64,000 nt of DNA from Gemmatimonadota bacterium. GTDB lineage: Bacteria > Gemmatimonadota > Gemmatimonadetes > Gemmatimonadales > GWC2-71-9. The stretch lies in the NCBI GenBank assembly GCA_029262195.1, contig JAJCZX010000010.1, forward strand, positions 67,352 to 131,351, written 5' to 3'. Shown one piece after another: positions 2,103 through 34,354 of the stretch. A model generated the notes under the pieces. That model did not search any database and had not been told where the DNA came from. It saw only the letters and a program-made list of their open reading frames with translations. Made by a program: the position numbers and the translations under genes. Position 1 is the stretch's first letter; the number at the start of each line of letters is the position of its first letter.

Positions 2103-2690
2103 ATGCCTGCCGCTGCGAGACCGAAGCTCAAGCCTGGAAAAGTCTATCGGACCATGGATTTGGAGAAGTACGGAAAGAACGCCCCACGGTTGGCCAAACG
2201 CTTGGTTGGCGAGGGCCGACTGCATCCGTTGGGGCGTGGAATCTTTGTTCACCGGGAAACCAGCAAGTTCGGCGCTCTGCCTCCAAGCAGAGAAGAACTC
2301 ATGCGGGCTTACCTGAACGGCGGCCGTTTCATTTTCTCGGGGCCCGAACAGTGGAACGTACTCAACCTGGGTTCGACGGCACTGTTCGCCTCCCAGCTCG
2401 TTTACAACGAGGCCCGTAGCGGTGAGGTCGAGCTGGGCGGACGGCGTTTCACTCTCAGACGAGTGGCGTTTCCGCAAAACCCCGCCGCCGAGTACTTCGC
2501 CATTGACCTGATAAAGAATCACCGTCAGGCCGGTGTTTCAGTTGGACGAATTGAGAAGGCAGTTAGTAGAGCCGTGGCTGAGGGGCGGCTGAAACCTTCG
2601 GAGTTGAGGCGCAGTGCGAAACGCTATGGCCGCAAGTCCACGGAGACCGTTGTTGAGACGGCAATCTCGCGAGCCATGGAAAATAGATGA
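2103..2690 (+). CDS. abiEi: AbiEi-like antitoxin / transcriptional regulator (type IV TA)
   Basis: 195 aa. AGGAG lies 5 nt upstream of the ATG. The stop overlaps the start of the AbiEii-type gene (ATGA). The N-terminal segment (RLAKRLVGEGRLHPLGRGIFV) resembles the AbiEi antitoxin N-domain. The call rests mainly on this pairing. Confidence 0.7.
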   Translation: MPAAARPKLKPGKVYRTMDLEKYGKNAPRLAKRLVGEGRLHPLGRGIFVHRETSKFGALPPSREELMRAYLNGGRFIFSGPEQWNVLNLGSTALFASQLVYNEARSGEVELGGRRFTLRRVAFPQNPAAEYFAIDLIKNHRQAGVSVGRIEKAVSRAVAEGRLKPSELRRSAKRYGRKSTETVVETAISRAMENR

Positions 2691-3655
2691 ACCCGATTTT
2701 CTTGCATGATGACCCTGAGTTTCGCGAGCTTATCCGTTTGGTCGCTGATAAGAGGAAAGTTTCTGAGGGGATCGTAGAAAAAGATTATTGGGTGACTCAC
2801 GCCCTGTGGTCTTTAAAAGAAACAGGTCTTGAAATCTACTTCAAAGGCGGTACCTCACTATCCAAAGGCTTCGGGTTGATTGAGCGGTTTTCCGAAGATG
2901 TTGATCTTACGATTGGCCGTGGGTCACGTACTGACTTACCTGAACTCGGAAGCCTCAGGAGTAAGACGCCGGGTGCAACGAAAAAACGGCGCGTATTCTT
3001 CGAAGCTCTTTGTGTAGCTATTGATATTCCCGGCACCACGGGCGTCAGGTTGTTGGCTCCCGCCGACGGTCGTTGGATCAGTGTCGAGTGTGAGGCATAC
3101 TATCCGAAGTTGTTCGAGTTGCCAGGAAACCTGCGCCCCTTCGTGCGGCTGGAACCGGGGCTCCGTTCGTGGAAACCTCCTGCGGTGTCTCGCAACCTCA
3201 CGAGCCTGCTGCACGAGCACGTGTTGGAACTGGGACTGGTGGAGCAATATGTTGACAATCGCCCTGTCGGAATGAGCTGCGTGCATCCACTGGTAACTTT
3301 GATCGACAAGCTTGATTCCGTATCGAAGCGTTACGCGAGGGAAGTTTTCGCTCCCGAAGAATTTGCCCGGCACTACGAAGATCTAGCACATTTGATCGAA
3401 GCCGCGGGCCAATTCCCACAACTTAAGGATGAAACCAAACAGGAAATAGTTAACAATTGTTTGAAAGGACGTGAGATCCATTCGACAGACTCGGCATTTG
3501 AGCTACGGGATGCTAAACGCCGTTCTGCCCTGGAAGCCGCACACCGCGAAATTGATCCAATGTTTTGGGGCCCAAGGATTTCGATTGAGGATTGTTGTGC
3601 TCGGATTGTCAAATGGTTAACCAAGAACCCAATCGGTCCGACTTCGGGTAGGTGA
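2687..3655 (+). CDS. abiEii: AbiEii/AbiGii-family nucleotidyltransferase toxin
   Basis: 322 aa. Carries the hallmark FKGGTSLSKGFGLIERFSEDVDL nucleotidyltransferase motif of the DUF1814/AbiEii family. Confidence 0.85.
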   Translation: MNPIFLHDDPEFRELIRLVADKRKVSEGIVEKDYWVTHALWSLKETGLEIYFKGGTSLSKGFGLIERFSEDVDLTIGRGSRTDLPELGSLRSKTPGATKKRRVFFEALCVAIDIPGTTGVRLLAPADGRWISVECEAYYPKLFELPGNLRPFVRLEPGLRSWKPPAVSRNLTSLLHEHVLELGLVEQYVDNRPVGMSCVHPLVTLIDKLDSVSKRYAREVFAPEEFARHYEDLAHLIEAAGQFPQLKDETKQEIVNNCLKGREIHSTDSAFELRDAKRRSALEAAHREIDPMFWGPRISIEDCCARIVKWLTKNPIGPTSGR

Positions 3656-3769: not shown

Positions 3770-4025
3770 CTGATAAGCGTGAGGTCGGCCCGCGGCGGCG
3801 AGCGTAGTGAACATCAATCGCGAACAAAGTGAGCGATGATGACTGCGTAGGCGCGTTTCCACCTGTTCATGTGGCCTGAAACGTGAGGTCGGCATGCGAC
3901 GGCAGCATGTGAGGTGAGCGACTCGATACAGCGCCATTGAAAAGAGCGGTGTGCTTGAAGTGGACCTCCGCTCGCCTTCGGCGATGTTCGGCGGCAAAAA
4001 ACCGCAGCAAATCTTCCCGGCCCAT
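3770..4025 (+). repeat. tRNA-Ile 3'-portion-like fragment A (split)
   Basis: CTGATAAGCGTGAGGTCGG (3770-3788) matches the tRNA from the anticodon loop to the 5' T stem. A second, degenerate copy CCTGAAACGTGAGGTCGG lies at 3875-3892. AAATCTTCCCGGCCCAT (4009-4025) matches the tRNA from the T loop to the 3' end. The intervening ~220 nt is homologous to the inserts of fragments B and D. Confidence 0.7.
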
Positions 4026-4040
4026 TCCAACAAGTCCTGC

Positions 4041-6437
4041 CTAATCTGAGCGGAGAACCCGAACGGGGTCCAACTTGTTCGCCCGTCGCGCCGGCAGGAA
4101 AGAAGCGATCAGCCCGACCGTTCCCTGGAGGATAGCGGCACCGACAAACACGCCGTAGTCGATAGGATTAACACCGAACAGAAGTGATGAAACAACGCGG
4201 GCCAAGGCGAGTGACATGGCTAGACCGACGATTGTTCCTCCAGCCATCCAGACGAATGACCTGCGCATTACGGTCCCGATGATCTGGCCCGACTGGGCCC
4301 CTATTGCTATTCGGATCCCGAGTTCTCGTTGTCGTTGGGAAACAAGAAAGGAAAGTACACCAAAAATCCCCACCGCCGCCAGCAACAGTGCAACTACCGC
4401 AAACCCGACTACCACAATAGCGTTGAACCTCGGCGCTGCCGAAGCCGCGCGGGATAGATCCCCGGTTGTCCCTATGTCGTAAACCGGTGTTCCGGTGGTG
4501 ATTTCTCCAATGCGAGCCATTGCCGCCGATGCGAGTGTAGGAGAGAGGTCGCTACCTCGGATGATCAGGTAGTATGGGTTCCAAGGCCACTGCCGGTGGG
4601 ATTGGTAGTATTGGAGTTCGCTTTCCGTCTCGAGCCCGACGTGCTTTACGTCGTCGACCACTCCGATGATCGTAGGCCCGGTTTCACCGTCGTTGCGAAC
4701 GGCTACTTTACCGACAGCGCTCCCGCGGGGATAAAGCGTCTCGGCCGCCGATCTCGAGACCAGGACGACCGCTCCGGACTCCGGTGTATCGGTTGGCCGA
4801 AAAAGTCTTCCTTCGAGAAGTTCTATTCCCAGGGTCGCGAAGTAATCGTCGCTGACGACGCGCTGCTGTAGCGAGATTGCCTCCTCGTTGCCGGCAGCTA
4901 CACGTTCGGCTGAATTCAGAGAACCGATCGCTCCCTGCCCGGTCAGCGGGAGAAAGGCGGTTACGGCGGCTGATTCAACTCCGGGCAACCCCTTTGTGGC
5001 TTCGAGAATTTGGTCAAGCGCGGTTGCGGTGGCTGCCATGCTTGACAAAGTAGTTGAAGGGAGAGCTATCCTCATCGTCATCGCGTCGCTGTTTGCAAAT
5101 CCCGTATCGACATGGCTCAGGGCGACAAAACTCTTAACAGTGAGGCCCGAGGCGATGACAAGAGTCAGTGCTAGCGCAAATTCGGTTGCCACGAGGGTAC
5201 CGAGCGCGGTATTTCCCGCGCGCCCCGATGAGGCGCCGCCTGATGTGAGCGTGTTGAAAGATTTGGAATGTGCCTGTTTCCAGACCGCCAGAATTCCTGC
5301 GAGGACACCTGCCAGCAACGCCAGGGAGAGCGAAACCAGCAACACGTTCGAGTCGACTGAGATCGATTCGACGCGTGGCAGTTCCGCCGGCGCGTTGCGA
5401 ATCAATAGTTTTACGCCGACGACGGAAAGGAGGACCCCCAGCAGACCGCCGATGATACCGATCAAGGCGGTTTCCGAGATCACGGCGCCAACAATCCGGG
5501 CCTTGCCGGCACCGATGGCCAGTTTCAATTCGGTTTCACGGGTGCGGGATACGCCGCGAGCCAGGGTGAGGTTAGCCAGGTTCACCGCGGCGATGAGGAG
5601 CACAAACCCTACCACCGCCTGGAGCATTAATAGCGGTCCCCTTGTGTCCCCCACGATCGCCGTGTGCAGACCCACTCCTACCGGCTTCCATCCTACGCTT
5701 CTGCGCCCGAGTTCTGCTCCCAATGTTGGAGCAAGGGCATCGAGTTCAGCGTACAATTGTTCTTCTGTAACGCTAGGAGCCAGCCGGCCCACGAGGTCCA
5801 ACCATCTGGCGGTCCATCGCGTTGTGCGGTAGTCGTGGTGAAGAAATATCTCGTATCCCTCACCGTCTATGTCTCGGAACCCGGCATCCGCGACTCCGAT
5901 AATTGTGACGGGCCGTCCGTCGACCTGGATGGCATCACCAATCACTCCGGGGTCAGCGCCGTAACGGCGGGTCCAGAGCCCGTGTGCCAGCACCGCTACT
6001 GCCGTGTCGTCCCGGTCGGAATCGAGGAAGAGCCGGCCGGCCGCCGCTCCCGTGCCAAGTGTTGGGAAAAATGAGGGAGTAACACGTGCGCCTGTAAGTC
6101 TTTCCGTCTCATCAGCGACACCGATTGTGAAGCTGTCTCCGAAATATCCTCCGAGTTCCGCCAGCGCAGCGGTCCGATTTCGGTAAGCGTCGAATTCTAA
6201 CTTGGTAAAGGAGAACCGGGGAAGGTCTTGTTCTGGATTGGAAGCCCAGAGTCGAACCAGCTCGTCCGGTTGGTCATACGGCAAGGGGGTCAGCAGAATG
6301 CCGTTGGTGACGCTGAAAATGGCTCCGTTGGCTCCCACGCCGAGCGTAAGGACCAACAAAGCCGCGACCGTGTATGCCCGTTGCCGCAGCAGAGCGCGAA
6401 TGGCAAACTTCAGATCCTGTGCGATTGCGGAAAACAT
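4041..6437 (-). CDS. FtsX/MacB-type duplicated permease (ADOP family), orphan
   Basis: 798 aa. The N-terminus (DLKFAIRALLRQRAYTVAALLVLTLGVGANGAIFS) and the C-terminal FtsX repeat ending in (LPARRANKLDPVRVLRSD) are typical of the family. GAGGAG lies ~10 nt upstream of the ATG. No adjacent ABC ATPase or PadR gene. Confidence 0.9.
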   Translation of the reverse strand: MFSAIAQDLKFAIRALLRQRAYTVAALLVLTLGVGANGAIFSVTNGILLTPLPYDQPDELVRLWASNPEQDLPRFSFTKLEFDAYRNRTAALAELGGYFGDSFTIGVADETERLTGARVTPSFFPTLGTGAAAGRLFLDSDRDDTAVAVLAHGLWTRRYGADPGVIGDAIQVDGRPVTIIGVADAGFRDIDGEGYEIFLHHDYRTTRWTARWLDLVGRLAPSVTEEQLYAELDALAPTLGAELGRRSVGWKPVGVGLHTAIVGDTRGPLLMLQAVVGFVLLIAAVNLANLTLARGVSRTRETELKLAIGAGKARIVGAVISETALIGIIGGLLGVLLSVVGVKLLIRNAPAELPRVESISVDSNVLLVSLSLALLAGVLAGILAVWKQAHSKSFNTLTSGGASSGRAGNTALGTLVATEFALALTLVIASGLTVKSFVALSHVDTGFANSDAMTMRIALPSTTLSSMAATATALDQILEATKGLPGVESAAVTAFLPLTGQGAIGSLNSAERVAAGNEEAISLQQRVVSDDYFATLGIELLEGRLFRPTDTPESGAVVLVSRSAAETLYPRGSAVGKVAVRNDGETGPTIIGVVDDVKHVGLETESELQYYQSHRQWPWNPYYLIIRGSDLSPTLASAAMARIGEITTGTPVYDIGTTGDLSRAASAAPRFNAIVVVGFAVVALLLAAVGIFGVLSFLVSQRQRELGIRIAIGAQSGQIIGTVMRRSFVWMAGGTIVGLAMSLALARVVSSLLFGVNPIDYGVFVGAAILQGTVGLIASFLPARRANKLDPVRVLRSD

Positions 6438-6604: not shown

Positions 6605-6746
6605 AATCGCTGTCAGTTCCACTGTCAGTTAATGTCGTAGAAGTACGACATCGAAGCGTCAAAGTTACGGCATGGCTCGGTCCAAACGGCGCAAAGTACG
6701 TTAATTTGCCGTAGTTGGCTGCTTATTCTTACAGCCCGACGGATGG
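6605..6746 (+). repeat. conserved repeat-rich block, copy B (precedes tRNA-like fragment B)
   Basis: Aligns by eye with 10179-10307 and 11771-11899. Contains direct CTGTCAGTT repeats at 6610-6618 and 6622-6630, the palindrome TGTCGTA-gaag-TACGACA, and several (C)AAAGT(T)ACG motifs plus an inverted CGTAGTTGG. Confidence 0.75.
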
Positions 6747-7039
6747 CCTGATAAGAGTGAGGTCGTCACGCGAAGGCGAGCGTAGGGAACATCAATCGCG
6801 AACAAAGTGAGCGATGATGACTGCCAACATCGCGAGTCGTTGACGAGCGATGGTTGTGAGTTGAGCGACTAAGTACAGCGCGACTGGAATGAGCGGTGTG
6901 CTTGACCGCGTCCCCGAGTTTACGAGGGGCGCGACTCTGCGCAAAGCGATTGGAACGAGCTTTGTCGCAGGAAGTTCACCTCCGCCCGCTTGCGGCGGTG
7001 CTCGGTGGCATGAAGCCGCAGCAAATCTTCCCAGGCTCA
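6747..7039 (+). repeat. tRNA-Ile 3'-portion-like fragment B (split)
   Basis: CCTGATAAGAGTGAGGTCG (6747-6765) and AAATCTTCCCAGGCTCAC (7022-7039) are separated by ~255 nt. The insert shares long identical stretches with fragment A, for example GAACATCAATCGCGAACAAAGTGAGCGATGATGACTGC. Confidence 0.7.
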
Positions 7040-7040
7040 C

Positions 7041-7649
7041 TCAATACCCATCGACCAGGTCATGCCGGAGAGTCGAAGGAAAGTCCCCCGGTTCATCCTG
7101 CGTAAGCAAAGCCATCAACCTGGGGTTGATGAACAGCTTTTCTCGTCCCGATTGTGTGTGTTCGAGCACCCCTGCGTTTGCCAACTCCCTGAGGTATGAA
7201 GATGCAGTTTGGCGTTGGCGATGCCGGCATCTACGACGTTGGAAATGCGGCAATAGGGTTGTACGAAAACCAGTTCGACCAATTCGCGACTAATAGAATC
7301 CCGGGAACCTGGCTCTGGTGAAGCTCGTTGTTTCGACCATCAACTCTCGAATTGCTCGAATGCGATTTGTGGTCCAGGCTGCGGTTTCCGTCACCGCGCC
7401 CAGCATGAAGAGTAGCCACCCTTCCCAGTCTCCGTCCTGTGTCACGGCATTGAGGAGACTATAATATTCTGACTTTTTTGCGATGATAGCGCGGCTGAGG
7501 TAAAGGATCGGAATTTCGAGTAGGCCGGTCTCTAGTAGATAGAGAAGATTGATGATCCTACCCGTGCGACCATTACCGTCGGAAAAGGGGTGAATCGCCT
7601 CGAACTGGTATTTTTGGATGCGAGGGTGATATGTCGATGTAATCGACAC
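7041..7649 (-). pseudogene. Fic-family gene remnant (N-terminal deletion plus two frameshifts)
   Basis: Near-identical at DNA level to the 3' ~60% of the intact Fic gene at 10504-11631. It retains HPFSDGNGRTGR. Sequence equivalent to codons 1 to ~190 is missing: the 5' UTR is fused at GAACTGGTA/TTGGATGCG. It has a 1-nt insertion (CTAATAG vs CTATAG, ~7290) and a 1-nt deletion (GCGTTGGCG vs GCGTTTGGCG, ~7212). Confidence 0.8.
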
Positions 7650-7787
7650 ATCGAGCTAACGTGTCGAAACAATAAGAAAAAATTGACACGTCTGCGGGCC
7701 TGGTTAGGGCTGTTATTCGGTCCTTTGGATCTGGCGCGTCCTTCCCGCCGGGGCCAGCCGAGACCGCCTTTTATTAACCGCCCTCTT

Positions 7788-8699
7788 CTAACCGCCTTTT
7801 TCTAACGCCTTCTCCGCGTTAGCCTCGGGAGAGTCCCGGCCGTCCAGCCAGCGGATCTCGACGCCCTGACGTTCCATGCGCCGAAACCACGTGTCCTGTC
7901 GTTTGGCGAACTGGTGGATCGCGGCTTCTAGCTGGGAGAACATCTGCTTTCGGGTGATGTCGCCGCGCAGGTGCTCGGTGACGTAGCGGTATTCCAATCC
8001 ATAGAAGATGAGCTGGTCATGGGTCAGCCCGCGACCCAGCAACGTCTCGACTTCTTCGATTAGCCCGTGGTCCAGCCGGTACGCCAATCGTCGCGTGATG
8101 CGCTCTCGCAGCTCGCGGCGCTCCCAGCGAACCCCGAAGACGCGCGAGTCGAGTGCGATCGACGGCGCTCGAGCGGAAGGATCGGCCTCCGCGATTTCGA
8201 TGGCGCGAATCAGGCGTTTGCGATCTTGGACGTCACTCGTATTGTGGAGCGGACCGTGTGATCGAAGCTCGGCGATCAACTGCTCCGTGGGTATCGCCTC
8301 CAGCTCGGCATGGCGTGTTGGGTCTGGCGGAGCGGACAGAAGCTGGTAGTCCTGCAGGACCGCGCTCAGGTAGAGACCGGTGCCGCCGCATAAAACCGGG
8401 AGACGCCCGCGCGAATGGATCTCTCGGATGGCGGCGATGCAGTCCCGTTTGAACTCGAAGAGGTTGTATTCGTACCCGGGGTCGGCAATGTCGATGAGGT
8501 GGTTTGGGACGGTACGGTCGTTGACCGTGTAGTCCTCCCGGTCCTTCCCGGTCCCGATGTCCATGTGCCGGTAGACCTGACGCGAGTCGGCGCTGACCAC
8601 CTCGCCGTTTGCCGCCGCGGCGACGTGAGCTGCGAGACGGGTCTTTCCGGCCGCGGTGGGCCCCAGGATACAAATTAGCGGGATCGGTGACTCAGCCAC
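7788..8699 (-). CDS. miaA: tRNA dimethylallyltransferase
   Basis: 303 aa. P-loop ILGPTAAGKT, SADSRQVYRHMDIGTGK, and overall MiaA-like layout. Confidence 0.93.
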   Translation of the reverse strand: MAESPIPLICILGPTAAGKTRLAAHVAAAANGEVVSADSRQVYRHMDIGTGKDREDYTVNDRTVPNHLIDIADPGYEYNLFEFKRDCIAAIREIHSRGRLPVLCGGTGLYLSAVLQDYQLLSAPPDPTRHAELEAIPTEQLIAELRSHGPLHNTSDVQDRKRLIRAIEIAEADPSARAPSIALDSRVFGVRWERRELRERITRRLAYRLDHGLIEEVETLLGRGLTHDQLIFYGLEYRYVTEHLRGDITRKQMFSQLEAAIHQFAKRQDTWFRRMERQGVEIRWLDGRDSPEANAEKALEKGG

Positions 8700-9927
8700 G
8701 GAGGTAATCCTCCTGGCGATAGCGGTCTTCCATTTTGAAGAGCATCCGCCGTATCCCGTCGAGTTCCGGAATGCTCAGCTCGGCCAGCGTGCGCTCGCAG
8801 AGAAAAGACCGCGCATGTGATGCCTCGGACTCCGTTCCTGGAAGGACGCTCCCGTGCCGGTCCAGCCAATCGATCAACGTCGCCCGATCATCCGTCGGCA
8901 CCCGACGATACTCGGCTTTCAGGTACTGCAAGATGCGGAGCCCGTCGAGTCGCTCGTGGCAGGCGCGGACGAATCGATCCACCGTCTTGTGGTTCTCGCG
9001 CAGTGGTTGCCAGGGGTCATCGGTGTCGGTTTTTTTGCGAAGGAATCCGTCCAGCGGAGTCTCTACCGGCGCGGCGAACAGATTGGGGAAGGCCTCGGTC
9101 GTGCGGCGAACCCTGTCGAAGAGTTCTGCAGGATAAAGTGGGTAGCGGTCGGTGTATTCGCCCTCGCACGCCGCGACGATGGCTTGACCGGTACCGACGG
9201 GAACGCGCCAGGACTTGCGGGTCGCTGGAGCGACCGGAGCGTCGGACCAGTGAAGCACCCGGCCGTGTTTGGTCAGTTTCTGCAGAAAGTAGAAGTCCTC
9301 GCCGCTGGTGCGAGGCGTCAGGCCCCCCACCTTCCGGTAGACGTACACCGGCAGCGCGATCGCCGAGCCGAGCGCGGTGAACGCGTAAGGCGACCCGATT
9401 CGCCACAGGTTGAGGGCGTAGTAGCGCATGTAGATCTCGTACCCCAACATGGCGCGCGTGACGGCGTCGTCTTCCGTGAGGGGATGGAGGTATCGCGCCG
9501 ACAGGCCGCAGGCAGTCGGGTGCCGGGCGAATGCGGCGACGAGCGACTGCAGGTAGCCCGGGGGCGTCAGGGTGTCGGCGTCCAGGCTGACGATGAGATC
9601 GTGAGGGGCGGCCGCAGCACTGATCGCATCCATCAATTCCTTCCGGGCGTGGCCGACTCCGCCCCGCTTCGGCGGCCAGCCCCGGCCCGGCGAGGTGCGG
9701 TCGATGATGCGGAGGTCGAGGTCCGTGATGGCGGAGAGCAGTTGGAGAGAGGCCTGGTTCGCATCGCGCACGACACGTCGATCCGGGTCGTGTTGCCAGG
9801 CCTCCGGTTGGTTGACGCATAGCCAGGTGACGAATCGCACTCCGTCTTGTTGCCGAAGCGCGTCGAGGCAGCCGGGAAGGCGCTCGACCTCGTCCTGAAC
9901 CGGGATGGCTACGTGGACAATCGGCAC
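8692..9927 (-). CDS. glycosyltransferase, family 2-like
   Basis: 411 aa. N-terminal Rossmann-like GT-A start (VAIPVQDEVERLPGCLDAL) and a DxD-type motif (SLDADT). Overlaps miaA by 8 nt. Confidence 0.7.
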   Translation of the reverse strand: MPIVHVAIPVQDEVERLPGCLDALRQQDGVRFVTWLCVNQPEAWQHDPDRRVVRDANQASLQLLSAITDLDLRIIDRTSPGRGWPPKRGGVGHARKELMDAISAAAAPHDLIVSLDADTLTPPGYLQSLVAAFARHPTACGLSARYLHPLTEDDAVTRAMLGYEIYMRYYALNLWRIGSPYAFTALGSAIALPVYVYRKVGGLTPRTSGEDFYFLQKLTKHGRVLHWSDAPVAPATRKSWRVPVGTGQAIVAACEGEYTDRYPLYPAELFDRVRRTTEAFPNLFAAPVETPLDGFLRKKTDTDDPWQPLRENHKTVDRFVRACHERLDGLRILQYLKAEYRRVPTDDRATLIDWLDRHGSVLPGTESEASHARSFLCERTLAELSIPELDGIRRMLFKMEDRYRQEDYLRG

Positions 9928-10178
9928 GGTTGAACCTCGGGTGACTGCATCCCCAGCGCGCCGGTACAGGCTAACCTCTCTTCCTCGACCGCTTCAAATG
10001 GCAGGAACGCCGGAGCCTCAGATTGTCGTCGGTTATGTCGTGAGCTTCAATCAACGAGGTGATCCATTCGTTCGGATTCGTCATAAAATCTCCTCTACGT
10101 CAGGAAAATTGTTCACACCGGTATAATATGTAGCCATCTTCAGGTGGCGAATGGAATGATGACTCAACGTCTCCGTCG

Positions 10179-10307
10179 AATCGCTGTCGGTTCGACTGTC
10201 GGTTAATGTCGTAAAAGTACGGCACGATAACGTCAAAGTACGGTATAGCTCGGTCCAAACGTCGCAAAGTACGTTAATTTGCCGTAGTTGGCTGCTTATT
10301 CATATGG
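10179..10307 (+). repeat. conserved repeat-rich block, copy C
   Basis: Homologous to 6605-6746 and 11771-11899 (AATCGCTGTCGGTTCGACTGTCGGTTAATGTCGTAAAAGTACGG...GCCGTAGTTGGCTGC). Confidence 0.75.
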
Positions 10308-10419
10308 CCTGATAAGCGTGAGGTCGGAACGCAAAGGCGGCAACCGCCATGTCTCTGGTCCTATCTGGTCCAACCTTTGATTTGCGGCAATCTGTGGCTT
10401 TCGAATCTCCCAGGCCCAC
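10308..10419 (+). repeat. tRNA-Ile 3'-portion-like fragment C (split, shortest insert)
   Basis: CCTGATAAGCGTGAGGTCGG (10308-10327) is identical to the tRNA. GAATCTCCCAGGCCCAC lies at 10403-10419. The insert is ~75 nt. Confidence 0.7.
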
Positions 10420-10503
10420 TTTCCACAAGTTCAAACCCGCTTCGAGGCCGTTCACTGTTTTGTTCCACCGTCCTACAGTCCGACACCTCCCACTTTGTTC
10501 CTA

Positions 10504-11631
10504 TCAAGGCTGGGAATCGAAGGAAAGGTCCCCCGGTTCATCTTGTGTCAGCAACGACATCAGCCGGGGGTTGATGAACAGCTTCTCTCGTCCCGATTGT
10601 GTGTGTTCGAGCACCCCTGCGTTTGCCAACTCCCTGAGGTATGAAGATGCAGTTTGGCGTTTGGCGATGCCGGCATCTACGACGTTGGAAATGCGGCAAT
10701 AGGGTTGTACGAAAATCAGTTCAACCAATTCGCGACTATAGAACCCCGGGAACCTGTCTCTGGTGAAGCTCGTTGTTTCGACCATCAACTCTCGAATTGC
10801 TCGAATGCGATTTGTGGTCCAAGCTGCGGTTTCCGTCACGGCGGCCAGCATGAAGAGTAGCCAGCCTTCCCAGTCACCGTCCTGTGTTACGGCATTGAGG
10901 AGGCGGTAATATTCTGACTTTTTTGTGATGATGGCGCGGCTGAGGTAAAGGACCGGCAGTTCGAGTAGTCCGGTCTCTAGCAGATAGAGAAGATTGATAA
11001 TCCTGCCCGTGCGACCATTGCCGTCGGAAAAAGGGTGAATCGCCTCGAACTGGTAGTGTGCCACCGCCATACGAATAAGTGGGTCCAACGAATCATGATT
11101 GTGAAGGAACGATTCCCAGTTGGAAAGCAGGTCGCGAAGCAAGTCAGGGCCTTCGGGGGGAGTATAGATCGTATCTCCAGTCGCCTCGTTCATCAGGGCA
11201 GTGCCGGGCACCCGCCTAATCTGCATTTCGCAGCCCTTCAGGACGGAACAGACGTTCACCGCCGTAGCGATTGAGAGCGGTTTCGCCGCGATTATCTCGG
11301 CGCCGCGTCGAAGGGCAGCCCGGTAGCGGAGCGCTTCCTTCGTGGCGGGGTCGGCACCGTCTTCTCTGCCGGGACTTGCAAATTGAAACAAGCGGTCGGC
11401 CGTCGTTACGATATTCTCGATCTCGGAACTGGCGCGGGCCTCCAGAAGCGGGATGGTATTGATGAGCACATCCTGATTGGGCAGGAGAGCACCGGCTTGT
11501 TTCAACTCTGCAATGGCGGATCGTGCGTTGATGCACGCTTTTAGAACGGGTCGCGTTTCCAGGTCAGCTTCCGGCGGCAAACGGGGCAAGTCATTGTAAG
11601 CTCTTTCTGGATAAGGTTTTAGCATGGCCAA
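10504..11631 (-). CDS. Fic-family protein (class II, auto-inhibited) with C-terminal winged-helix region
   Basis: 375 aa. Active-site motif HPFSDGNGRTGR. N-terminal inhibitory motif SSEIEN fits (S/T)xxxE(G/N). C-terminal wHTH-like segment [24 protein letters not shown]. Confidence 0.92.
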   Translation of the reverse strand: MAMLKPYPERAYNDLPRLPPEADLETRPVLKACINARSAIAELKQAGALLPNQDVLINTIPLLEARASSEIENIVTTADRLFQFASPGREDGADPATKEALRYRAALRRGAEIIAAKPLSIATAVNVCSVLKGCEMQIRRVPGTALMNEATGDTIYTPPEGPDLLRDLLSNWESFLHNHDSLDPLIRMAVAHYQFEAIHPFSDGNGRTGRIINLLYLLETGLLELPVLYLSRAIITKKSEYYRLLNAVTQDGDWEGWLLFMLAAVTETAAWTTNRIRAIRELMVETTSFTRDRFPGFYSRELVELIFVQPYCRISNVVDAGIAKRQTASSYLRELANAGVLEHTQSGREKLFINPRLMSLLTQDEPGDLSFDSQP

Positions 11632-11684
11632 AATGAGTTCCTGGATGCGGAAGTGATATGTCGATGCAATCGACGCATCGGGCT

Positions 11685-11724
11685 AACGTGTCGAAATAAT
11701 AAGAAAATTTCGACACGTTGACAA
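11685..11724 (-). promoter_or_regulatory. putative Fic promoter embedded in a perfect 13-bp inverted repeat
   Basis: On the minus strand the promoter reads TTGTCA, 17 nt, TATTAT. The inverted repeat AACGTGTCGAAAT-9nt-ATTTCGACACGTT (11685-11719) spans the spacer and -10. A second inverted repeat, GTCGAT-tgc-ATCGAC, lies in the ~58-nt leader. Confidence 0.45.
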
Positions 11725-11770
11725 GAACTCAGTTTTAGGGCTGGATTTAGCTCCTTCTCGACCTCGTTAG

Positions 11771-11899
11771 CTGGGTGTCGGTCTTACTGTCGGTTAATGT
11801 CGTCAAAGTACGGCATGGAAGAGTCAAACTACGGCATGGCTCGGTCCGAAACGTCGCGGTATACGTTAAGATGCCGTAGTTGGCTGCGTATTGGGCTGG
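11771..11899 (+). repeat. conserved repeat-rich block, copy D
   Basis: Homologous to copies B and C (GTGTCGGTCTTACTGTCGGTTAATGTCGTCAAAGTACGGCATGG...GCCGTAGTTGGCTGC). Confidence 0.7.
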
Positions 11900-12073
11900 C
11901 CTGATATGCGTGAGGTCGGAATGCGAAGGCGAGCATTGTGAGTTGAGCGACTTTGCGCGCTGCAAATTCGCCGCTCGCCTGCACCATTCTGCAATCCCCC
12001 GTTCCACTGCGATACCCAAGTCATCTGATCAGATCAGCGTTTAATCTGCGGCTTCCAAATCTCCCAGACCCAC
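11900..12073 (+). repeat. tRNA-Ile 3'-portion-like fragment D (split)
   Basis: CCTGATATGCGTGAGGTCGG (11900-11919) and AAATCTCCCAGACCCAC (12057-12073) are separated by ~135 nt. The downstream flank (…CGACTTAGC…TTTTATTTTT, 12081-12130) resembles the terminator region after the intact tRNA. Confidence 0.7.
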
Positions 12074-12247
12074 TTCCCGCAAAGTTGAGCTCAGCTCCGA
12101 CTTAGCTCCTGGCAGGGTTTTATTTTTCGTGCCGAAAAGTGGCCTACTGTCGGGGGCTGCTGTCAATTGATTGCCTGCCGTCCCTTGGCTGCAGATGGAC
12201 CCATGCGTTAGTCGGCGTGACGATCCGTTGCCAGGGGGCTGATGGAT

Positions 12248-12828: not shown

Positions 12829-13178
12829 TCTTTACCTCATTCGCTAGGGCTGCGAAGGTGAGCAGCCCGGTTTTCGTGAAATTCGGTTTGGGTGAAGCCA
12901 AGGTGTTACGGCGTTGGTTACCCAGCATTCCACACCGGGTTCCGGCCGGTGGGCCCAGTGGTGCTGTGGGAAGGGTACAAAACAGCCAATCTTCCTTATT
13001 ACCGAAAGGGAACCGAGCGCCTCTCGCAATTGATCCAAGTCGGGCCGCCGGTAGCACTTGATGATGGTGTTGACATCCTTCCGGCCCACCGAGGGCACAG
13101 AGTTGCTTCGGAGGGAGCTGGTCGGGTGGTTGCCTCCTTCTCAGACCGTGCCAGGTCTGAATTCCACGACGAGGAGAT

Positions 13179-13421
13179 CTAATTTCGCCCCAGTGACCAA
13201 TTCACCAATTCTTTCACAGCGGCAACCAGAGCGACACCCCACAGAGTTGCCGCAGTGGCTATCTGAACACATATCCCGGCCGCTATGGCTAACAAGATCA
13301 CACCGGAAGCGACAGCAACCGACTGGGAAACGACTACCAGTCCTCCCAGGACTGCTACCGAAAACATTATCAAGGCCACCGTTGGCCGGGTGAGCCCGGG
13401 AACTCTTTCTTGAGTGAACAT
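13179..13421 (-). CDS. small hypothetical membrane protein (2 TM)
   Basis: 80 aa with two hydrophobic helices. AGGA lies ~10 nt upstream of the ATG, and the gene is downstream of the sigma-54 promoter. An alternative-frame ORF (13141-13536) overlaps it completely, so the frame is uncertain. Confidence 0.4.
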   Translation of the reverse strand: MFTQERVPGLTRPTVALIMFSVAVLGGLVVVSQSVAVASGVILLAIAAGICVQIATAATLWGVALVAAVKELVNWSLGRN

Positions 13422-13531
13422 TGGCGCCAGGTCCTTTCCGCCGATGAGCCCCGTTTTTTCGCATCCCCTGTGTCCTTAAGATTTGGTCGAATGACACGCT
13501 AATCAAATGCTCACCTCCAATATCATTCACT

Positions 13532-13547
13532 TGCATTTCCCGGGCCA
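13532..13547 (-). promoter_or_regulatory. sigma-54 (-24/-12) promoter
   Basis: The minus strand reads TGGCCC-GGGAA-ATGCA against the consensus TGGCAC-N5-TTGCA. The GG and GC dinucleotides have the canonical spacing. It lies ~100 nt downstream of the sigma-54 activator gene and points at the small ORFs. Confidence 0.5.
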
Positions 13548-13643: not shown

Positions 13644-15044
13644 TCATTCGTCGCGCGTTCGCCGATAGGCCTTTGGGTCGATCGAATATTTGGTGAGCTT
13701 GCGCCAGAACGTGGGGCGGCTGATACCTAACTCTTCCGCGGCGTGCCCCGAATGTCCTGCATTGTTGATGAGTGCGGCAACGACGGTTTCTGCTTCGGCA
13801 CGTTGGAGGGGGAACCACTGTTGCGTACCCAAATGAGCGTCCATGAGAGGTCTGGGCGGCTGCAATTCTTCCGGCAAGTGACGGACATCGATGAGTCCTG
13901 AGTGGCAAAACGCGAACGTGTACTCGATGATATTCATCAATTCCCGAGCGTTGCCGGGGAATTGATGCCTGATCAGGATTTCGGCCACGGCCGGGGTGAC
14001 GCCGTCGACGTTTCGACCGGTCTTAGTATTGAAGCGTTCAATGAAATGATCGATCAGGTAGGGGATGTCTTCCTTTCGCTCCTTCAACGGCGGTATCGAA
14101 AGCCGCACAACAGCCAGGCGGAAATATAGGTCATCTCGAAAGAGACCCTGCTTGACCATGTCGGGAAGTTTTTTGTTGGTTGCAGCCACTACTCGTACAT
14201 CGGCTTTGAGCGGACCCGTTCCGCCAACGGGCTCATATTCTCGTTCCTGCAACAACCGCAGCAATTTCCCCTGGGTTTCCGGCAGCAAGTCACCGATCTC
14301 GTCGAAGAAGATAGTACCGCCCTCGGCCGCTTTGACCCGACCGGGTTTATCTTTTTTAGCGTCTGTGAAGGCACCCTTCTTGTATCCGAACAACTCCGAC
14401 TCAACCAGATTCGTCGGCAGTGTACCGCAATTGACCACTACATAGGGTCCGGCTTTTCGATGCCCCAGGTTGTGGATTGCTCGTGCTATCAACTCCTTTC
14501 CGGAGCCGCTCGGGCCTTCGATCAGTACGGTACTTTCGCTTTCTGATATCTCGGGCAGAATCCGAAACATCTTCTGGAATGCCTCGCTTTTTCCGACAAT
14601 GTCCTCTACAGTGTGCTGCGAATGAATTTCACGCCGAAGTTGCTCGAGGTCGGAGAGATCCCGGAATGTTTCGACAGCCCCAATGACGTTGCCGGTCTCG
14701 TCACGAAGTACCGCTGCGTTGATGTGGATTGGGATTTTGCGGCCATCCTGGCGAGTAATACGGGCAGGGCGCTCAGTGACCTCAATATCTGTATCCCATA
14801 TTTTGCGGATCGGGCAGTCGGAAGCACAGAGGTCGGAGTGAAAAACATCAGAGCAGGATCTACCGATGGCCTTTTGAGCCTGGACTCCCGTGATTCGCTC
14901 GGCGGCGCGGTTGAATGAAGTTATCCTGAGTTTTTGATCAACCGTAAACACTCCGTCCGCAATGTTTTGCAGAACGATCTGGAAGAACTCTGGTTCCGTC
15001 TCCGGTCGCATTGCAATCCCGATCAGATCGGCGGGGCTGGGCAA
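13644..15044 (-). CDS. sigma-54-dependent transcriptional activator (PAS-AAA+-Fis HTH)
   Basis: 466 aa. N-terminal PAS-like region, Walker A GPSGSGKE, GAFTDA loop, ESELFGY, and C-terminal Fis-type HTH (AAEELGISRPTFWRKL). No receiver domain. Confidence 0.92.
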   Translation of the reverse strand: MPSPADLIGIAMRPETEPEFFQIVLQNIADGVFTVDQKLRITSFNRAAERITGVQAQKAIGRSCSDVFHSDLCASDCPIRKIWDTDIEVTERPARITRQDGRKIPIHINAAVLRDETGNVIGAVETFRDLSDLEQLRREIHSQHTVEDIVGKSEAFQKMFRILPEISESESTVLIEGPSGSGKELIARAIHNLGHRKAGPYVVVNCGTLPTNLVESELFGYKKGAFTDAKKDKPGRVKAAEGGTIFFDEIGDLLPETQGKLLRLLQEREYEPVGGTGPLKADVRVVAATNKKLPDMVKQGLFRDDLYFRLAVVRLSIPPLKERKEDIPYLIDHFIERFNTKTGRNVDGVTPAVAEILIRHQFPGNARELMNIIEYTFAFCHSGLIDVRHLPEELQPPRPLMDAHLGTQQWFPLQRAEAETVVAALINNAGHSGHAAEELGISRPTFWRKLTKYSIDPKAYRRTRDE

Positions 15045-15145: not shown

Positions 15146-15340
15146 TTAAAAACCCGTTAGAATGTCCTTAGACAGGGGAACTAAATGTCGTTCTCTAAGT
15201 GCTGCAAGCGCATCCGTTGCCCAGTCGAGTAGGGCCGCGGTAAATATTCCCAGGCCCATTGGAATGGTGATTCCAGAATGGCGGATTGAGAATAGTGAAT
15301 TCTGCATTGCCGTCCGCCATTCAGTCTTCTGCAATCTCAT
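15146..15340 (-). CDS. small hypothetical protein
   Basis: 64-aa ORF between two same-strand genes. GAGG lies ~8 nt upstream of the ATG. It has one hydrophobic segment. Confidence 0.3.
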   Translation of the reverse strand: MRLQKTEWRTAMQNSLFSIRHSGITIPMGLGIFTAALLDWATDALAALRERHLVPLSKDILTGF

Positions 15341-31340: not shown

Positions 31341-31673
31341 ATGCCACGAGAGAAAACCGCCCTGCTGCAGGGCACGCTGGACATGCTCATCCTCAAGGCT
31401 CTGGATCGTGAGGCGAAACACGGGTATTCTGTGGCCCGTACGATTGAGCAAGCCACTGACGACGTGCTGAGTGTGGACGAGGGGTCTCTCTACCCGGCGT
31501 TGCACCGCATGGAAAGGAAGAAATGGATCGAATCTTCCTGGGGACTTTCTGAAAACAACAGGCGGGCCAAATTTTACGAAGTCACCAACATGGGGCGAAA
31601 ACAATTGTCAGTTGAAACTTCAGAATGGACCCGCTACTCCCACGCAATCGAACAGATGTTGCACACACCGTGA
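31341..31673 (+). CDS. PadR-family transcriptional regulator
   Basis: 110 aa. LDMLILKAL…HGYSVARTIEQ…GSLYPALHRMERKKWIES is canonical PadR sequence. Confidence 0.93.
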   Translation: MPREKTALLQGTLDMLILKALDREAKHGYSVARTIEQATDDVLSVDEGSLYPALHRMERKKWIESSWGLSENNRRAKFYEVTNMGRKQLSVETSEWTRYSHAIEQMLHTP

Positions 31674-34354
31674 AGGGCACCCGAGATAGTAAGGTACGAC
31701 TTCCGCTCTGGTTGAGGAGAATCGTCTTGCGCCGTAAACTGGCACGAGACATCGATGAAGAACTTCGGTTCCATCTCGACATGAGGGCTGAAGAATATTC
31801 TCAGGAAGGTCGAGGAGCAGCACGCCGCAAGGCGCTACAGCGTTTCGGGGACTTCAAGTTAGTTGTGGAAGCATGTCGATCTGCTGGTAAACTGCCGCCA
31901 CCCCCTGGTACAAACGAATCAGCAATTGCACGCTTGTTATCGAGGTTTGGGGTTTCGATGATAGACGTGAGGTTGGGGGTGCGAATGTTGACGAAGCATC
32001 CAGGTTTGACGGGCGCGGCGGTTTTCGCCCTCGCCGTCGGTATACCTGTCGGGTTGGCCCCTATGCATGCCGCGCGGATGTTCGAGGCTGATCCCCCGTT
32101 TGAAGAAGGACGCCGAGTACGGATTCTCAAGAACCTGGATGCCGGAAGTGCCAATTGGGTACCGTCGTCGTTGCAAGAATTTTTCCAATGGAGTGATGCA
32201 CTGTCGACCTTTGAAGCGCTCGGCGTTACGAAAGGGTCTCTGTACAACATCATCTCAGATGACGGGTTGGCCGAACCGGTTCCCGGCGCCGTCGTATCTG
32301 CTTCAACGTTTAATATTCTGAGAATTTTACCGCAAATGGGGCGCACACTTGACCCTTCGGACGAGTTGATTGGAGGTCCGGAAGTGGTGGTGATCGGACA
32401 TGCGGTGTGGAAATCTCGCCTTGACGGGGATCCTGACGCCATTGGCCGGACAATCCGAATCGGAGGAGTCCCACACACAGTGGTCGGTGTTATGCCGGAA
32501 GGATTTCTCTTTCCCTTTCGTGAAGGTCTGTGGTTACCACTGCGGACCAACAGGCTTGATGAGACGCTTCTAAAGGCCAGGGGCTATCTCGTGTTCGGGC
32601 GTTTGGCGGATGGAATCTCCCTGCATCAAGCTCAAGCCGATCTCAGTGTGGTTGGTCGCCGTATGGCGGTTGAGTCTCCGGAAACGCATGCGCTGCTTCA
32701 ACCGGAGGTCGTGGCTTTTACAAAGGGACTTTTCGGAATTAGAGGCGGCTTACAGAAGGAGCAAGGATTCTACGCGTTCCAGGTACTGGCACTGCTGATA
32801 CTGGTGGTCGCGTGTGCTAATGTCGGAATGTTGATTTTTACCCGCACGGTGGCGCGGTCAGGGGAGTTGGCGGTGCGCACTGCATTGGGGGCCAGTCGCG
32901 CGCGGGTTGTAATGCAATTGTTTGTCGAATCCCTTGTGCTGGCCGTTCTGGCGGCAGGGGTCGGACTTTTGGTGGCGGACCAGATCTCGTCGAGCCGTTT
33001 TGACATGATTGCTGATGTTTCGCCTCCCTGGTTCGATCTGGGAGTGACACGATGGACCGTGGCCTGGGCGTTTTCTCTAGCGGTTTTGAGCGCCGGTGTT
33101 ATGGGGGTCGTTCCGGCTTTGAAGGTGACGGGCAAAAAGGTTCGGAGGCACATCCTTGGCGCTGGCGAGGGACGCTCCGGTGTGCGTTTCGGCGCACTGT
33201 CCAGCGCACTCACGATCGCAAACGTGACGCTTGCGGTGGCAACAGTGCCCCTGGCTGTAGGAGTGGTCGATGGATTGACTGAGACACAAGAAGGAACCAC
33301 GTTCGAAGCAGACCAGTTTCTGTCGGCACGACTCCGAATGCCGCACACGGAACCGGCACGAGCCAGCGCAATTCGACTCGAGTTGATCCGGCGCCTTGAG
33401 GCCGAACCGGGAATTCGCGGTGTTGCAGTTGGGACCTCCTTGCCAGGGATGGACCACCCAAGCGGGAGGATCGAACTGGATCTTGATGACGATTCGAGCG
33501 ATCCCAGGGGTCGGCGCGTTTCTAGCGTGCACGTCAACGTCGGGTATTTCGACGGGTTGGACCATCCGATTCTAGCCGGGCGAGGATTCGAGTATGCCGA
33601 TCTGAGCGGAGATCGCTCGGCCGTTATCGTCAACACCAACTTTGTAAACAACGTTCTTGGAGGCCGCAATCCGTTGGGGATGCGTGTTCGGTACGTGACC
33701 AGGCCGACTGGCGGGCAGACTGAGCCATGGCTGGAAATAGTGGGTGTCGTCGGTTCTTTTGCAGCGATTGACGCAGGGCTTTTTCATGTCCTTCCTCCCG
33801 AGGAAACTGAGCGGGTGTTACTTGCCGTTCATGTCGGTGACGAACCAGAGTCATTCATACCTCGAATGCGCGCACTCGCTGCCGAAGTGGATCCCGCTGT
33901 GATCATATCTCGTCCAATGGCGTTAAATGAGGTGTTCTCTTTCGCGGTGTACGTGACAGATTGGATCACTTGGGGCGGTCGAATCTTGACTGGGATTTTA
34001 CTGGCGCTGTCGGTGTCGGGGATTTATGCGATAATGTCCTTTACGGTCGTTGAACGGACGTCGGAAATCGGTATCCGGATTGCATTAGGGGCGCAACGAA
34101 GCTCAATCGTGTTAAATGTCGCAAAGCGAGCCTTGGTTCAGCTTTTCGCGGGCATCGTGATCGGAGTGACGATAGCTCTCGGGCTGCTAACCGTGCTTAA
34201 GGGTGGCGGTGCGATTCCGACCCAATCTCCGTTGGTTATGGCCACTGCGCTCGGGTTGGGCGTCACAGTTTTGATCGGGGTATTGGCCTGCACAGCGCCG
34301 ACGCTTCGAGCGCTGAGGATAATGCCGACCGAAGCGCTCCGCGGTGATGGGTAG
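31670..34354 (+). CDS. FtsX/MacB-type duplicated permease (ADOP family)
   Basis: I prefer the start at GTG 31670, which overlaps the PadR stop (GTGA). N-terminal prefix (DIDEELRFHLDMRAEEY), two FtsX repeats, and the C-terminal tail APTLRALRIMPTEALRGDG. Confidence 0.9.
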   Translation: MKGTRDSKVRLPLWLRRIVLRRKLARDIDEELRFHLDMRAEEYSQEGRGAARRKALQRFGDFKLVVEACRSAGKLPPPPGTNESAIARLLSRFGVSMIDVRLGVRMLTKHPGLTGAAVFALAVGIPVGLAPMHAARMFEADPPFEEGRRVRILKNLDAGSANWVPSSLQEFFQWSDALSTFEALGVTKGSLYNIISDDGLAEPVPGAVVSASTFNILRILPQMGRTLDPSDELIGGPEVVVIGHAVWKSRLDGDPDAIGRTIRIGGVPHTVVGVMPEGFLFPFREGLWLPLRTNRLDETLLKARGYLVFGRLADGISLHQAQADLSVVGRRMAVESPETHALLQPEVVAFTKGLFGIRGGLQKEQGFYAFQVLALLILVVACANVGMLIFTRTVARSGELAVRTALGASRARVVMQLFVESLVLAVLAAGVGLLVADQISSSRFDMIADVSPPWFDLGVTRWTVAWAFSLAVLSAGVMGVVPALKVTGKKVRRHILGAGEGRSGVRFGALSSALTIANVTLAVATVPLAVGVVDGLTETQEGTTFEADQFLSARLRMPHTEPARASAIRLELIRRLEAEPGIRGVAVGTSLPGMDHPSGRIELDLDDDSSDPRGRRVSSVHVNVGYFDGLDHPILAGRGFEYADLSGDRSAVIVNTNFVNNVLGGRNPLGMRVRYVTRPTGGQTEPWLEIVGVVGSFAAIDAGLFHVLPPEETERVLLAVHVGDEPESFIPRMRALAAEVDPAVIISRPMALNEVFSFAVYVTDWITWGGRILTGILLALSVSGIYAIMSFTVVERTSEIGIRIALGAQRSSIVLNVAKRALVQLFAGIVIGVTIALGLLTVLKGGGAIPTQSPLVMATALGLGVTVLIGVLACTAPTLRALRIMPTEALRGDG

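Follow-up and report, generated by a model that had tools for sequence, protein, structure and literature searches.

Arrays built by accretion, in which hybrid attachment (att) sites lie between neighbouring elements and decayed members lack an integrase, have been described for cis-mobilizable elements (CIMEs), with ICESt1 and ICESt3 as the paradigm, a CIME being defined as a segment that is devoid of integrase and transfer genes and has retained its att sites (PMC5704250). The islands catalogued by Islander display an intact tRNA gene (tDNA) followed by displaced fragments in the same orientation, with the anticodon loop and the T-loop/junction as crossover subsites (PMC4383910; Williams 2002, cited there); each such island comes with its integrase and with an uninterrupted 3' tDNA fragment, and arrays of at least three are rare (4/3919; PMC4383910). 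According to the excerpted text of the preprint on Prochlorococcus tycheposons, each new integration at a tRNA gene moves the older elements further out, with a partial tRNA alone between neighbours, and the islands contain degenerate remnants, scattered extra partial tRNAs, integrase-carrying elements and integrase fragments (bioRxiv 10.1101/2020.12.28.424599). Here we analyse a 64,000-nt stretch of contig JAJCZX010000010.1 from a Gemmatimonadota bacterium (the whole stretch being referred to as the window), in which a repeat-rich non-coding stretch of ~130 bp, hereafter the block, occurs in three copies (numbered 1-3 along the + strand), each standing before a piece of a tRNA-Ile(GAT) gene. 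In our view the chances are roughly even that the block represents a conserved att-site arm, within a tandem array of small segments that integrated into this tRNA gene and are either decayed or dependent on an enzyme acting in trans. Copy 2, at 10179-10306, is the copy under study.

The array at the tRNA-Ile(GAT) gene

The tRNA gene was located with ARAGORN and Rfam and has its own terminator-like hairpin with a T-run at ~1893-1936. Copies of the block were sought in the window by BLAST and with an nhmmer profile built from all three. The features of the array are as follows.

1811-1885, + strand: intact tRNA-Ile(GAT), the anchor of the array (ARAGORN; Rfam RF00005, 77.9 bits)
3770-3788, + strand: anticodon-type fragment A1, without a block (repeat families, profile search)
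3874-3892, + strand: anticodon-type fragment A2, degenerate
4008-4028, + strand: T-loop/3'-acceptor fragment A
6605-6745, + strand: block copy 1, with a 12-nt insertion (6731-6742) before the tRNA-like core (alignments, BLAST, nhmmer)
6746-6783, + strand: anticodon-type fragment B (6746-6768) and the conserved 15 nt after it
7022-7042, + strand: T-loop/3'-acceptor fragment B, 95% identical to tRNA positions 1867-1887
10179-10306, + strand: block copy 2, the stretch under study (alignment, motif and repeat analyses)
10307-10342, + strand: anticodon-type fragment C and the conserved segment following it
10400-10424, + strand: T-loop/3'-acceptor fragment C
11771-11898, + strand: block copy 3 (alignments, BLAST, nhmmer)
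11899-11936, + strand: anticodon-type fragment D (22/23 bases as in the tRNA) and the conserved segment following it
12053-12078, + strand: T-loop/3'-acceptor fragment D
15233-15259, + strand: isolated tRNA-Ile 3'-end fragment of the A/B type, GCCGCGGTAAATATTCCCAGGCCCA (nhmmer E 0.068; its Smith-Waterman score against fragments A and B was matched by at most 1 of 300 shuffles)

All the fragments, five of the anticodon type and five of the T type, share the orientation of the tRNA (+), and together with the repeated modules they are restricted to 1.8-15.3 kb of the window. The anticodon-type piece is a 23-nt sequence corresponding to the region from the anticodon loop to the variable loop of tRNA-Ile(GAT); the core of fragment C (10307-10329) equals tRNA positions 1841-1863 in 23/23 bases, and the identity to the tRNA begins at the same nucleotide (G30) in fragments B, C and D. 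The T-type piece corresponds to the T-loop/3'-acceptor end of this tRNA, with a few of the bases next to it, and lies 73-251 nt past the anticodon-type piece, so the displaced 3' half of the tRNA is split. The order of parts in a junction module is the block (130 bp), the anticodon-loop segment (23 bp), a conserved stretch of 15 bp, a variable stretch of 60-235 bp and the T-loop/3'-end segment. According to BLAST, fragments A and B are homologous over their full length (84-92%), and C and D are alike at both ends. A lambda-type core would have inverted half-sites around an overlap of 6-8 bp; the tRNA itself reads CACGC-CTGATAA-GCGTG, and the modules have only ..TGGC as the left half-site. The inserts that split the 3' half (3791-4007, 6769-7021, 10330-10399 and 11922-12052) are situated between the 5' strand of the T stem and the T loop; they share sub-modules (e.g. 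TGTGAGTTGAGCGACT) and six + strand GAGCGAY heptamers. We also considered that the block itself might be a degenerate 5' half of the tRNA and rejected this, the local alignment being no better than those of shuffled sequences (p ~0.5-0.7).

The order along the locus is tRNA-Ile, segment E1, fragment A, E2, block 1/fragment B, E3, block 2/fragment C, E4, and block 3/fragment D. The modules part cargo that is unrelated both functionally and compositionally (AbiE, an ADOP permease, miaA with a glycosyltransferase, and Fic), and an intact tRNA gene followed by same-orientation fragments bracketing unrelated accessory DNA is a signature of site-specific integration. An earlier note on this DNA, made from the letters alone, had pointed out that fragment A lacks the block, which both the profile and the sequence (from 3767 on) confirm, and that the AbiE segment may have a different history, with which our data are consistent. 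The isolated fragment at 15233-15259 lies 3 kb past the last block, beyond a gene for a sigma-54 activator, and is adjoined by neither a block nor an anticodon-type piece. It suggests a possible older outer boundary of the array, which may therefore be older and longer than its block-bearing part.

The locus resembles CIMEs in that its segments lack integration and transfer genes, keep att-type repeats, are stacked behind a single target gene with putative hybrid att sites separating one from the next, and include toxin-antitoxin or defence genes in their cargo. It differs from them in having no known related autonomous element or integrase, in the very small size of its segments (1.6-3.4 kb), in its target (the anticodon or T-loop region of tRNA-Ile in an uncultured, Gemmatimonadota-related lineage) and in a junction that carries two separate tRNA pieces. 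With the Islander islands it shares the intact tDNA, displaced same-orientation fragments at the segment ends, and the two usual subsites as the points where these fragments start; unlike those islands, it has no integrase, and its tRNA 3' half, interrupted by 73-251 bp, is not contiguous. Stacked elements at a tRNA gene, partial tRNAs between neighbours and scattered extra fragments are likewise features of the tycheposon islands as the excerpted text presents them. Unlike in these, neither an integrase nor an integrase fragment was seen in our locus, which shows no sequence relationship to them, and a conserved 130-bp arm is not mentioned in that excerpt. The kind of structure, i.e. tandem tRNA-integrated segments without an integrase, is a known one; the sequence family of the block is new.

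Repeats within the block

The three copies are present where the earlier note had placed them, all on the + strand, and are 84-90% identical by BLAST. Within the window, copy 1 aligns with copy 2 at 90.4% over 125 nt (6605-6728 against 10179-10301, E 4e-32), copy 2 with copy 3 at 83.6% over 146 nt (10195-10339 against 11786-11931, E 6e-21), and copy 1 with copy 3 at 84.3% over 108 nt (6621-6727 against 11786-11892, E 2e-12), and the profile of the three copies revealed no fourth one in the 64 kb. It had further been claimed that the copies end exactly where the tRNA-like sequence starts. This is true of the similarity to the tRNA, which begins there, but not of the homology among the copies, which extends over the 23 nt of tRNA-like sequence and the next ~15 nt (..ACGCGAAGGCGAGC) and makes the conserved unit at least 170 bp long. 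The junction of block and core is direct in copies 2 and 3, and 12 nt are inserted there in copy 1. Whereas the position of the block relative to the core stays constant, its distances to the T-type fragment and to the next gene start (168, 95 and 140 bp for copies 1, 2 and 3) are not fixed. Independent short-read assemblies of the same organism (Logan contigs L001, L061, L062, L112 and L114, from SRR15505512-17) stop at window positions 1840, 3817/3838, 6719, 10292 and 10792, all of these ends being inside the repeat modules or the Fic duplication described below. The repeats are thus real in the samples, and the order of cassettes in the metagenome-assembled genome rests on the assembler's resolution of them.

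The repeated motifs of copy 2 have the following positions.

10184-10192 and 10196-10204: CTGTCGGTT
10206-10217 (+), 10213-10224 (-), 10234-10245 (-), 10265-10276 (-) and 10280-10291 (+): TnnCGTAnTTTG-type 12-mers

All the motifs that the earlier note had read in the block were recovered by our analysis. Its two CTGTC(A/G)GTT 9-mers with a 12-bp period are there, the first of them being GTGTCGGTC in copy 3, and its three to four direct motifs with an inverted one correspond to three CAAAGTACGG-type direct motifs, 21 and 31 bp apart, and an inverted CCGTAGTT; in copy 3 the third direct motif is degraded and reads CGGTATACG. The palindrome it described, ATGTCGTA-N4-TACGACAT, is fully symmetrical only in copy 1, since copies 2 and 3 have TACGGCA as the second half, its longer form over the copies being ATGTCGTA-N4-TACG(A/G)CAT. 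In helical terms, the block has three TGTCG repeats, whose spacings of 12 and 10 bp are close to one turn, and five TnnCGTAnTTTG-type sites in both orientations, which lie ~2 and ~3 turns from one another. Self-repetitiveness was scored as the number of repeat pairs against 300 dinucleotide-preserving shuffles per copy. Copies 2 and 3 hold 19 and 21 pairs, respectively (shuffle means 2.2 and 1.4), a number reached by 0/300 shuffles in either case, and copy 1 holds six (shuffle mean 1.9; reached by 20/300). Alignment columns are conserved more frequently in the motifs (60/73) than in the spacers (35/68; Fisher p 1.4e-4), with the motif set chosen after the alignment had been seen and the 12-nt indel counted among the spacers.

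The P arm of the lambda attP site combines arm-type Int sites with sites for Xis, IHF and Fis; the arm-type motif is present on both arms, and int and xis lie beside attP. The block is similar to this arm in being a non-coding stretch of ~130-160 bp that flanks a core on one side, with short motifs (putative protein-binding sites) repeated in helical phase, and a motif occurring at least twice within ~150 bp of the core is found here as in lambda-type sites. Unlike in lambda, the motifs are confined to one side of the core, and there is no adjoining integrase or excisionase gene.

We infer arm-type binding by the block, along the following lines. The 23 bp of tRNA identity would be, or would once have been, the core at which strand exchange with the tRNA gene is catalysed by a tyrosine recombinase, in correspondence with the anticodon-centred subsite of islands that integrate into tRNA genes. 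The block would represent the P arm, whose short phased repeats (the three TGTCG and the five TnnCGTAnTTTG-type sites) may bind the arm-binding domain of the integrase, an excisionase or an architectural protein and thereby build the recombination complex. Repeated integration at one tRNA gene would give rise to hybrid arm-core-arm junctions between neighbouring segments. Since no recombinase is encoded nearby, the segments would be either decayed relics of the CIME type or served by an enzyme encoded elsewhere in the genome.

Clustered short repeats might alternatively mark an iteron-type replication origin (as the earlier note had also envisaged) or an origin of transfer carried by each segment, which we regard as extremely unlikely. 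The clustering of direct and inverted repeats is the only point in its favour. The repeats are 9-13 nt long and present in 2-3 copies at 12/21/31-bp spacing, unlike the regularly spaced 17-22-bp repeats of iterons; the Pfam and NCBIfam searches of the larger open reading frames (ORFs) of the window detected no gene for Rep, a relaxase or mobilisation; no DnaA box occurs in or next to any block; 500-bp intervals containing the blocks have 50-54% GC and no marked AT-rich stretch; and all three copies fall within 5.3 kb of chromosome.

It is also very unlikely that the block is part of a structured RNA, transcribed from the + strand and running into a tRNA-like mimic of the anticodon arm. The consensus fold does have -40.8 kcal/mol on the + strand versus -18.9 on the - strand, and the + strand fold is rich in G-U pairs, with several one-sided changes that keep the pairing. 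However, there are only three sequences and only two pairs with double changes, and the G+T richness of the + strand (positive GC skew) may add to the asymmetry between the strands. Single-sequence folds of the block are no better than those of dinucleotide shuffles (z +0.13 to -1.96 overall, and +0.13 to -1.12 on the + strand), the longer units give z +0.10 to -2.31 with only one value below -1, and no promoter-like site lies upstream on the + strand. Rfam 15, searched at the gathering threshold and again at E<=5, returned the tRNA itself as the only match, the block matching no family.

Other candidate identities failed as well. The block is not coding, since there are 1-nt indels between the copies and stops in every frame of copy 2; a conserved-looking minus-strand frame (..CRTxTTLTDSxTD..), in which the paired G/A changes are synonymous, was rejected because the indels shift the frame between copies. 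As a transposon end the block has no inverted partner, and the two minus-strand CTGTCG-like matches at 13307-13325 are within an ORF and show no further similarity. Nor is it the conserved 3' untranslated region or terminator of a shared gene, a case raised beforehand: the neighbouring genes differ, and the block lies at their 5' side.

Weighing the possible att-site arm

The interpretation of the block as a recombinase arm, already put forward in the earlier note, is the best-supported option thanks to the fixed position of the block against the core, its location at segment borders behind an intact tRNA gene, its lack of coding capacity, of promoter-like sites and of significant RNA structure, and its phased repeats with their better conservation than the spacers; the recombinase, two-sided motifs and a related locus that would complete it were not found. 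The following observations speak against it. Neither the larger ORFs of the 64 kb, searched with Pfam and NCBIfam, nor the genes called in the 8.7 kb upstream gave an integrase, excisionase, transposase, relaxase or Rep domain. Homologues of the block, or of the core plus its flank, were recovered neither from GTDB representative genomes, JGI metagenomes and IMG/VR (pattern scans) nor from PLSDB and phage records (blastn). The CAAAGTACGG-type motifs are confined to the blocks and absent from the far side of the core, unlike in lambda-type sites; that side holds another clustered heptamer, GAGCGAY. The displaced 3' halves of the tRNA are non-contiguous in every unit, separated by 73-251 bp of non-tRNA sequence, and such split halves do not agree with the textbook scheme of tRNA restoration by the incoming element unless extra events are added. 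Finally, the block copies have diverged by 10-17%, compared with 7% between the neighbouring duplicated copies of the Fic gene, so the divergence does not point to purifying selection on the block or to a present-day function of it, and the block may be a relic.

The few matches obtained in the database scans proved to be spurious. The exact-pattern scan of GTDB gave 58, all due to chance according to BLAST. In IMG/VR, the 16-mer TGCCGTAGTTGGCTGC matched 42 times, always in phage coding regions that are unrelated, two matches to GTGAGGTCG... are GC-rich coding DNA, and the single two-anchor match has no BLAST similarity to the module. Among the neighbouring proteins, Fic homologues found elsewhere (<=74% identity) occur in other defence-island contexts, with no tRNA or block in those contigs that have readable DNA. 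Close relatives of BipA and of the sigma-54 activator on useful contigs were not found, BipA sharing ~70% identity with Gemmatimonadota proteins and 88-89% with proteins on two short contigs.

The array can also be segmented in another way, in which the T-type fragments are the true direct repeats and the stretch from the block to the insert is a long right arm; this, too, counts against the arm reading as given above. It better accommodates the sister segments E3 and E4, whose right ends are alike, also in the 14 nt directly in front of the T-type piece, and both have the CTCCC variant (in E1, E2 and the isolated fragment the variant is GCCGCRG). It would, on the other hand, put the block at a variable distance of 97-275 bp from the crossover, which suits an arm of an intasome less well. 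Either segmentation may be correct, and under both of them the block belongs to the junction module and not to the cargo. The interrupted 3' half, with the anticodon and T-loop subsites combined in one module, is the sole unusual feature of the array and could record a competition of two integrase specificities for one tRNA.

The divergence of the copies bears also on the main rival explanation, which we find possible though rather doubtful. It posits that the block is an inert passenger, i.e. a non-functional part of one ancestral junction that was copied by tandem duplication, unequal homologous recombination or repeated integration, with the internal repeats as leftovers having no present role. 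Indeed, the whole module and not the block alone was co-duplicated, the block diverges to a similar or higher extent than the adjacent duplicated Fic DNA, no recombinase is encoded nearby, and one motif is already degraded in copy 3. Copy 1 shows G-to-A changes that look concerted; as they are located at CpG sites, parallel mutation is plausible. Yet the motif columns are more conserved than the spacers, and the strong repetitiveness and helical phasing require an original function, most simply protein binding at an att site. This explanation therefore differs from an att-site arm only in whether the sites still work.

A comparison with integrons leads to a further option. CALINs are clusters of attC sites without an integron integrase, an attC site having an R''/L''-L'/R' palindrome and a GTTRRRY core. 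Integron cassette arrays and CALINs have in common with the present locus small segments without a recombinase, each with a site-like module of ~130 bp, and a high similarity of these modules within a genome, as among the repeats of chromosomal integrons. Unlike in attC, a whole-site palindrome and a GTTRRRY core could not be recognised by eye in the block; there are only local inverted repeats, and the GTT-containing heptamers seen by eye, GTTAATG and GTTAATT, do not fit RRR. Also unlike integrons, the locus has no IntI (Pfam), and its modules hold tRNA-derived sequence and lie 5' of cargo genes that possess promoters of their own. It is in our opinion unlikely that the array is a working integron-like cassette platform on a tRNA gene, whose cassettes, of one or a few genes and without a recombinase, bear a module of ~170-440 bp (the block plus a core mimicking tRNA-Ile) and are shuffled, excised and inserted by a recombinase encoded elsewhere. 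The defence/toxin, permease and tRNA-modification genes would then be its cassettes, and the block would do the work of attC in an as yet undescribed system.

Should the block be an att-site arm, the locus would illustrate, for a lineage with little sampling, how one tRNA gene gathers defence and accessory genes via stacked mini-islands. The block could then serve as a DNA probe for the partner recombinase and for further cassettes in the genome. The practical value lies mainly in annotation, as the module flags island boundaries that would be missed by integrase-based finders. The interest of the locus is modest and would be higher if the array were proved to be an active cassette system with a recombinase in trans.

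Cargo segments and their promoters

The identities of the miaA-glycosyltransferase and permease cargo derive from Pfam and NCBIfam (TIGR) matches. The segments are as follows.

2103-3655, + strand: E1, a 195-aa ORF and an AbiEii toxin (Pfam PF08843)
4041-6437, - strand: E2, an ADOP-family duplicated MacB/FtsX permease (Pfam; TIGR03434, 728 bits)
7060-10084, - strand: E3, a Fic copy with an internal deletion (7060-7650), miaA (7788-8699), a family-2 glycosyltransferase (8692-9927) and a 37-aa ORF (9971-10084)
10504-11760, - strand: E4, an intact SoFic-like Fic gene (10504-11631) with a palindromic promoter region (11642-11718)

The Fic gene is duplicated together with its upstream region (7060-7735 and 10504-11760, ~93% identity), the first copy being short of ~545 bp in its 5' half. 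The common upstream region (7615-7691, equivalent to 11642-11718) contains two palindromes, ATGTCGAT-GCA-ATCGACRCAT and AACGTGTCGAAA-N14-TTTCGACACGTT, which adjoin or overlap the best sigma-70-like promoter match and probably constitute an autoregulatory operator. The Fic protein has a C-terminal winged helix-turn-helix (wHTH) domain (PF21248).

All three blocks are on the 5' side of the neighbouring minus-strand gene, 95-168 bp upstream of its start and distal to the predicted promoter. This arrangement, the sigma-54 activator gene adjoining the array (13644-15044) and the wHTH domain of Fic would be compatible with the block being a multi-site operator or activator region for the first minus-strand gene of each segment, one of the options listed in the earlier note. 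We nevertheless judge a regulatory role of this kind decidedly unlikely. The block itself contains no sigma-70-like promoter, the promoter-like sites of the adjoining minus-strand genes being located between the block and the gene, and there is no sigma-54 -24/-12 site near any block, for which reason a sigma-54 enhancer is not supported either; with the predicted promoters outside the block and no sigma-54 promoter nearby, the operator explanation is weak. Moreover, the distances to promoters and start codons are not constant, the three downstream gene sets are functionally unrelated, and no block adjoins the second instance of the Fic promoter region, at 7615-7691. The 84-90% identity over 130 bp, together with the co-conserved tRNA-like core, indicates common descent rather than a shared operator. 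The window does contain a -24/-12-like match, TGGCCCGGGAAATGCA, at 13532-13547 (-), directly upstream of an ORF at 13141-13536 and beside the gene for the sigma-54 activator, the total of such matches in the window being at chance level.

Some further observations concern the individual cargo genes. The operon of miaA, the family-2 glycosyltransferase and the 37-aa ORF (7788-10084) has 63.6% GC versus ~55.5% in the rest of the window, and miaA, a tRNA-modification gene, appears to ride as island cargo. The window encodes three large duplicated MacB/FtsX permeases (4041-6437, 31625-34354 and 57519-60137, the latter two scanned with Pfam only), of which the one at 4041-6437 sits within the tRNA array. 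The 195-aa ORF of E1, which precedes and overlaps AbiEii, has no Pfam or NCBIfam match and occupies the position expected for an AbiEi antitoxin. Toxin-antitoxin modules are also found upstream of the tRNA gene, namely a PIN-domain protein after an 86-aa ORF (1286-1717) and an HTH-HipA pair (7241-8822 of Logan contig L062), so the tRNA gene sits in a wider region of accessory genes.

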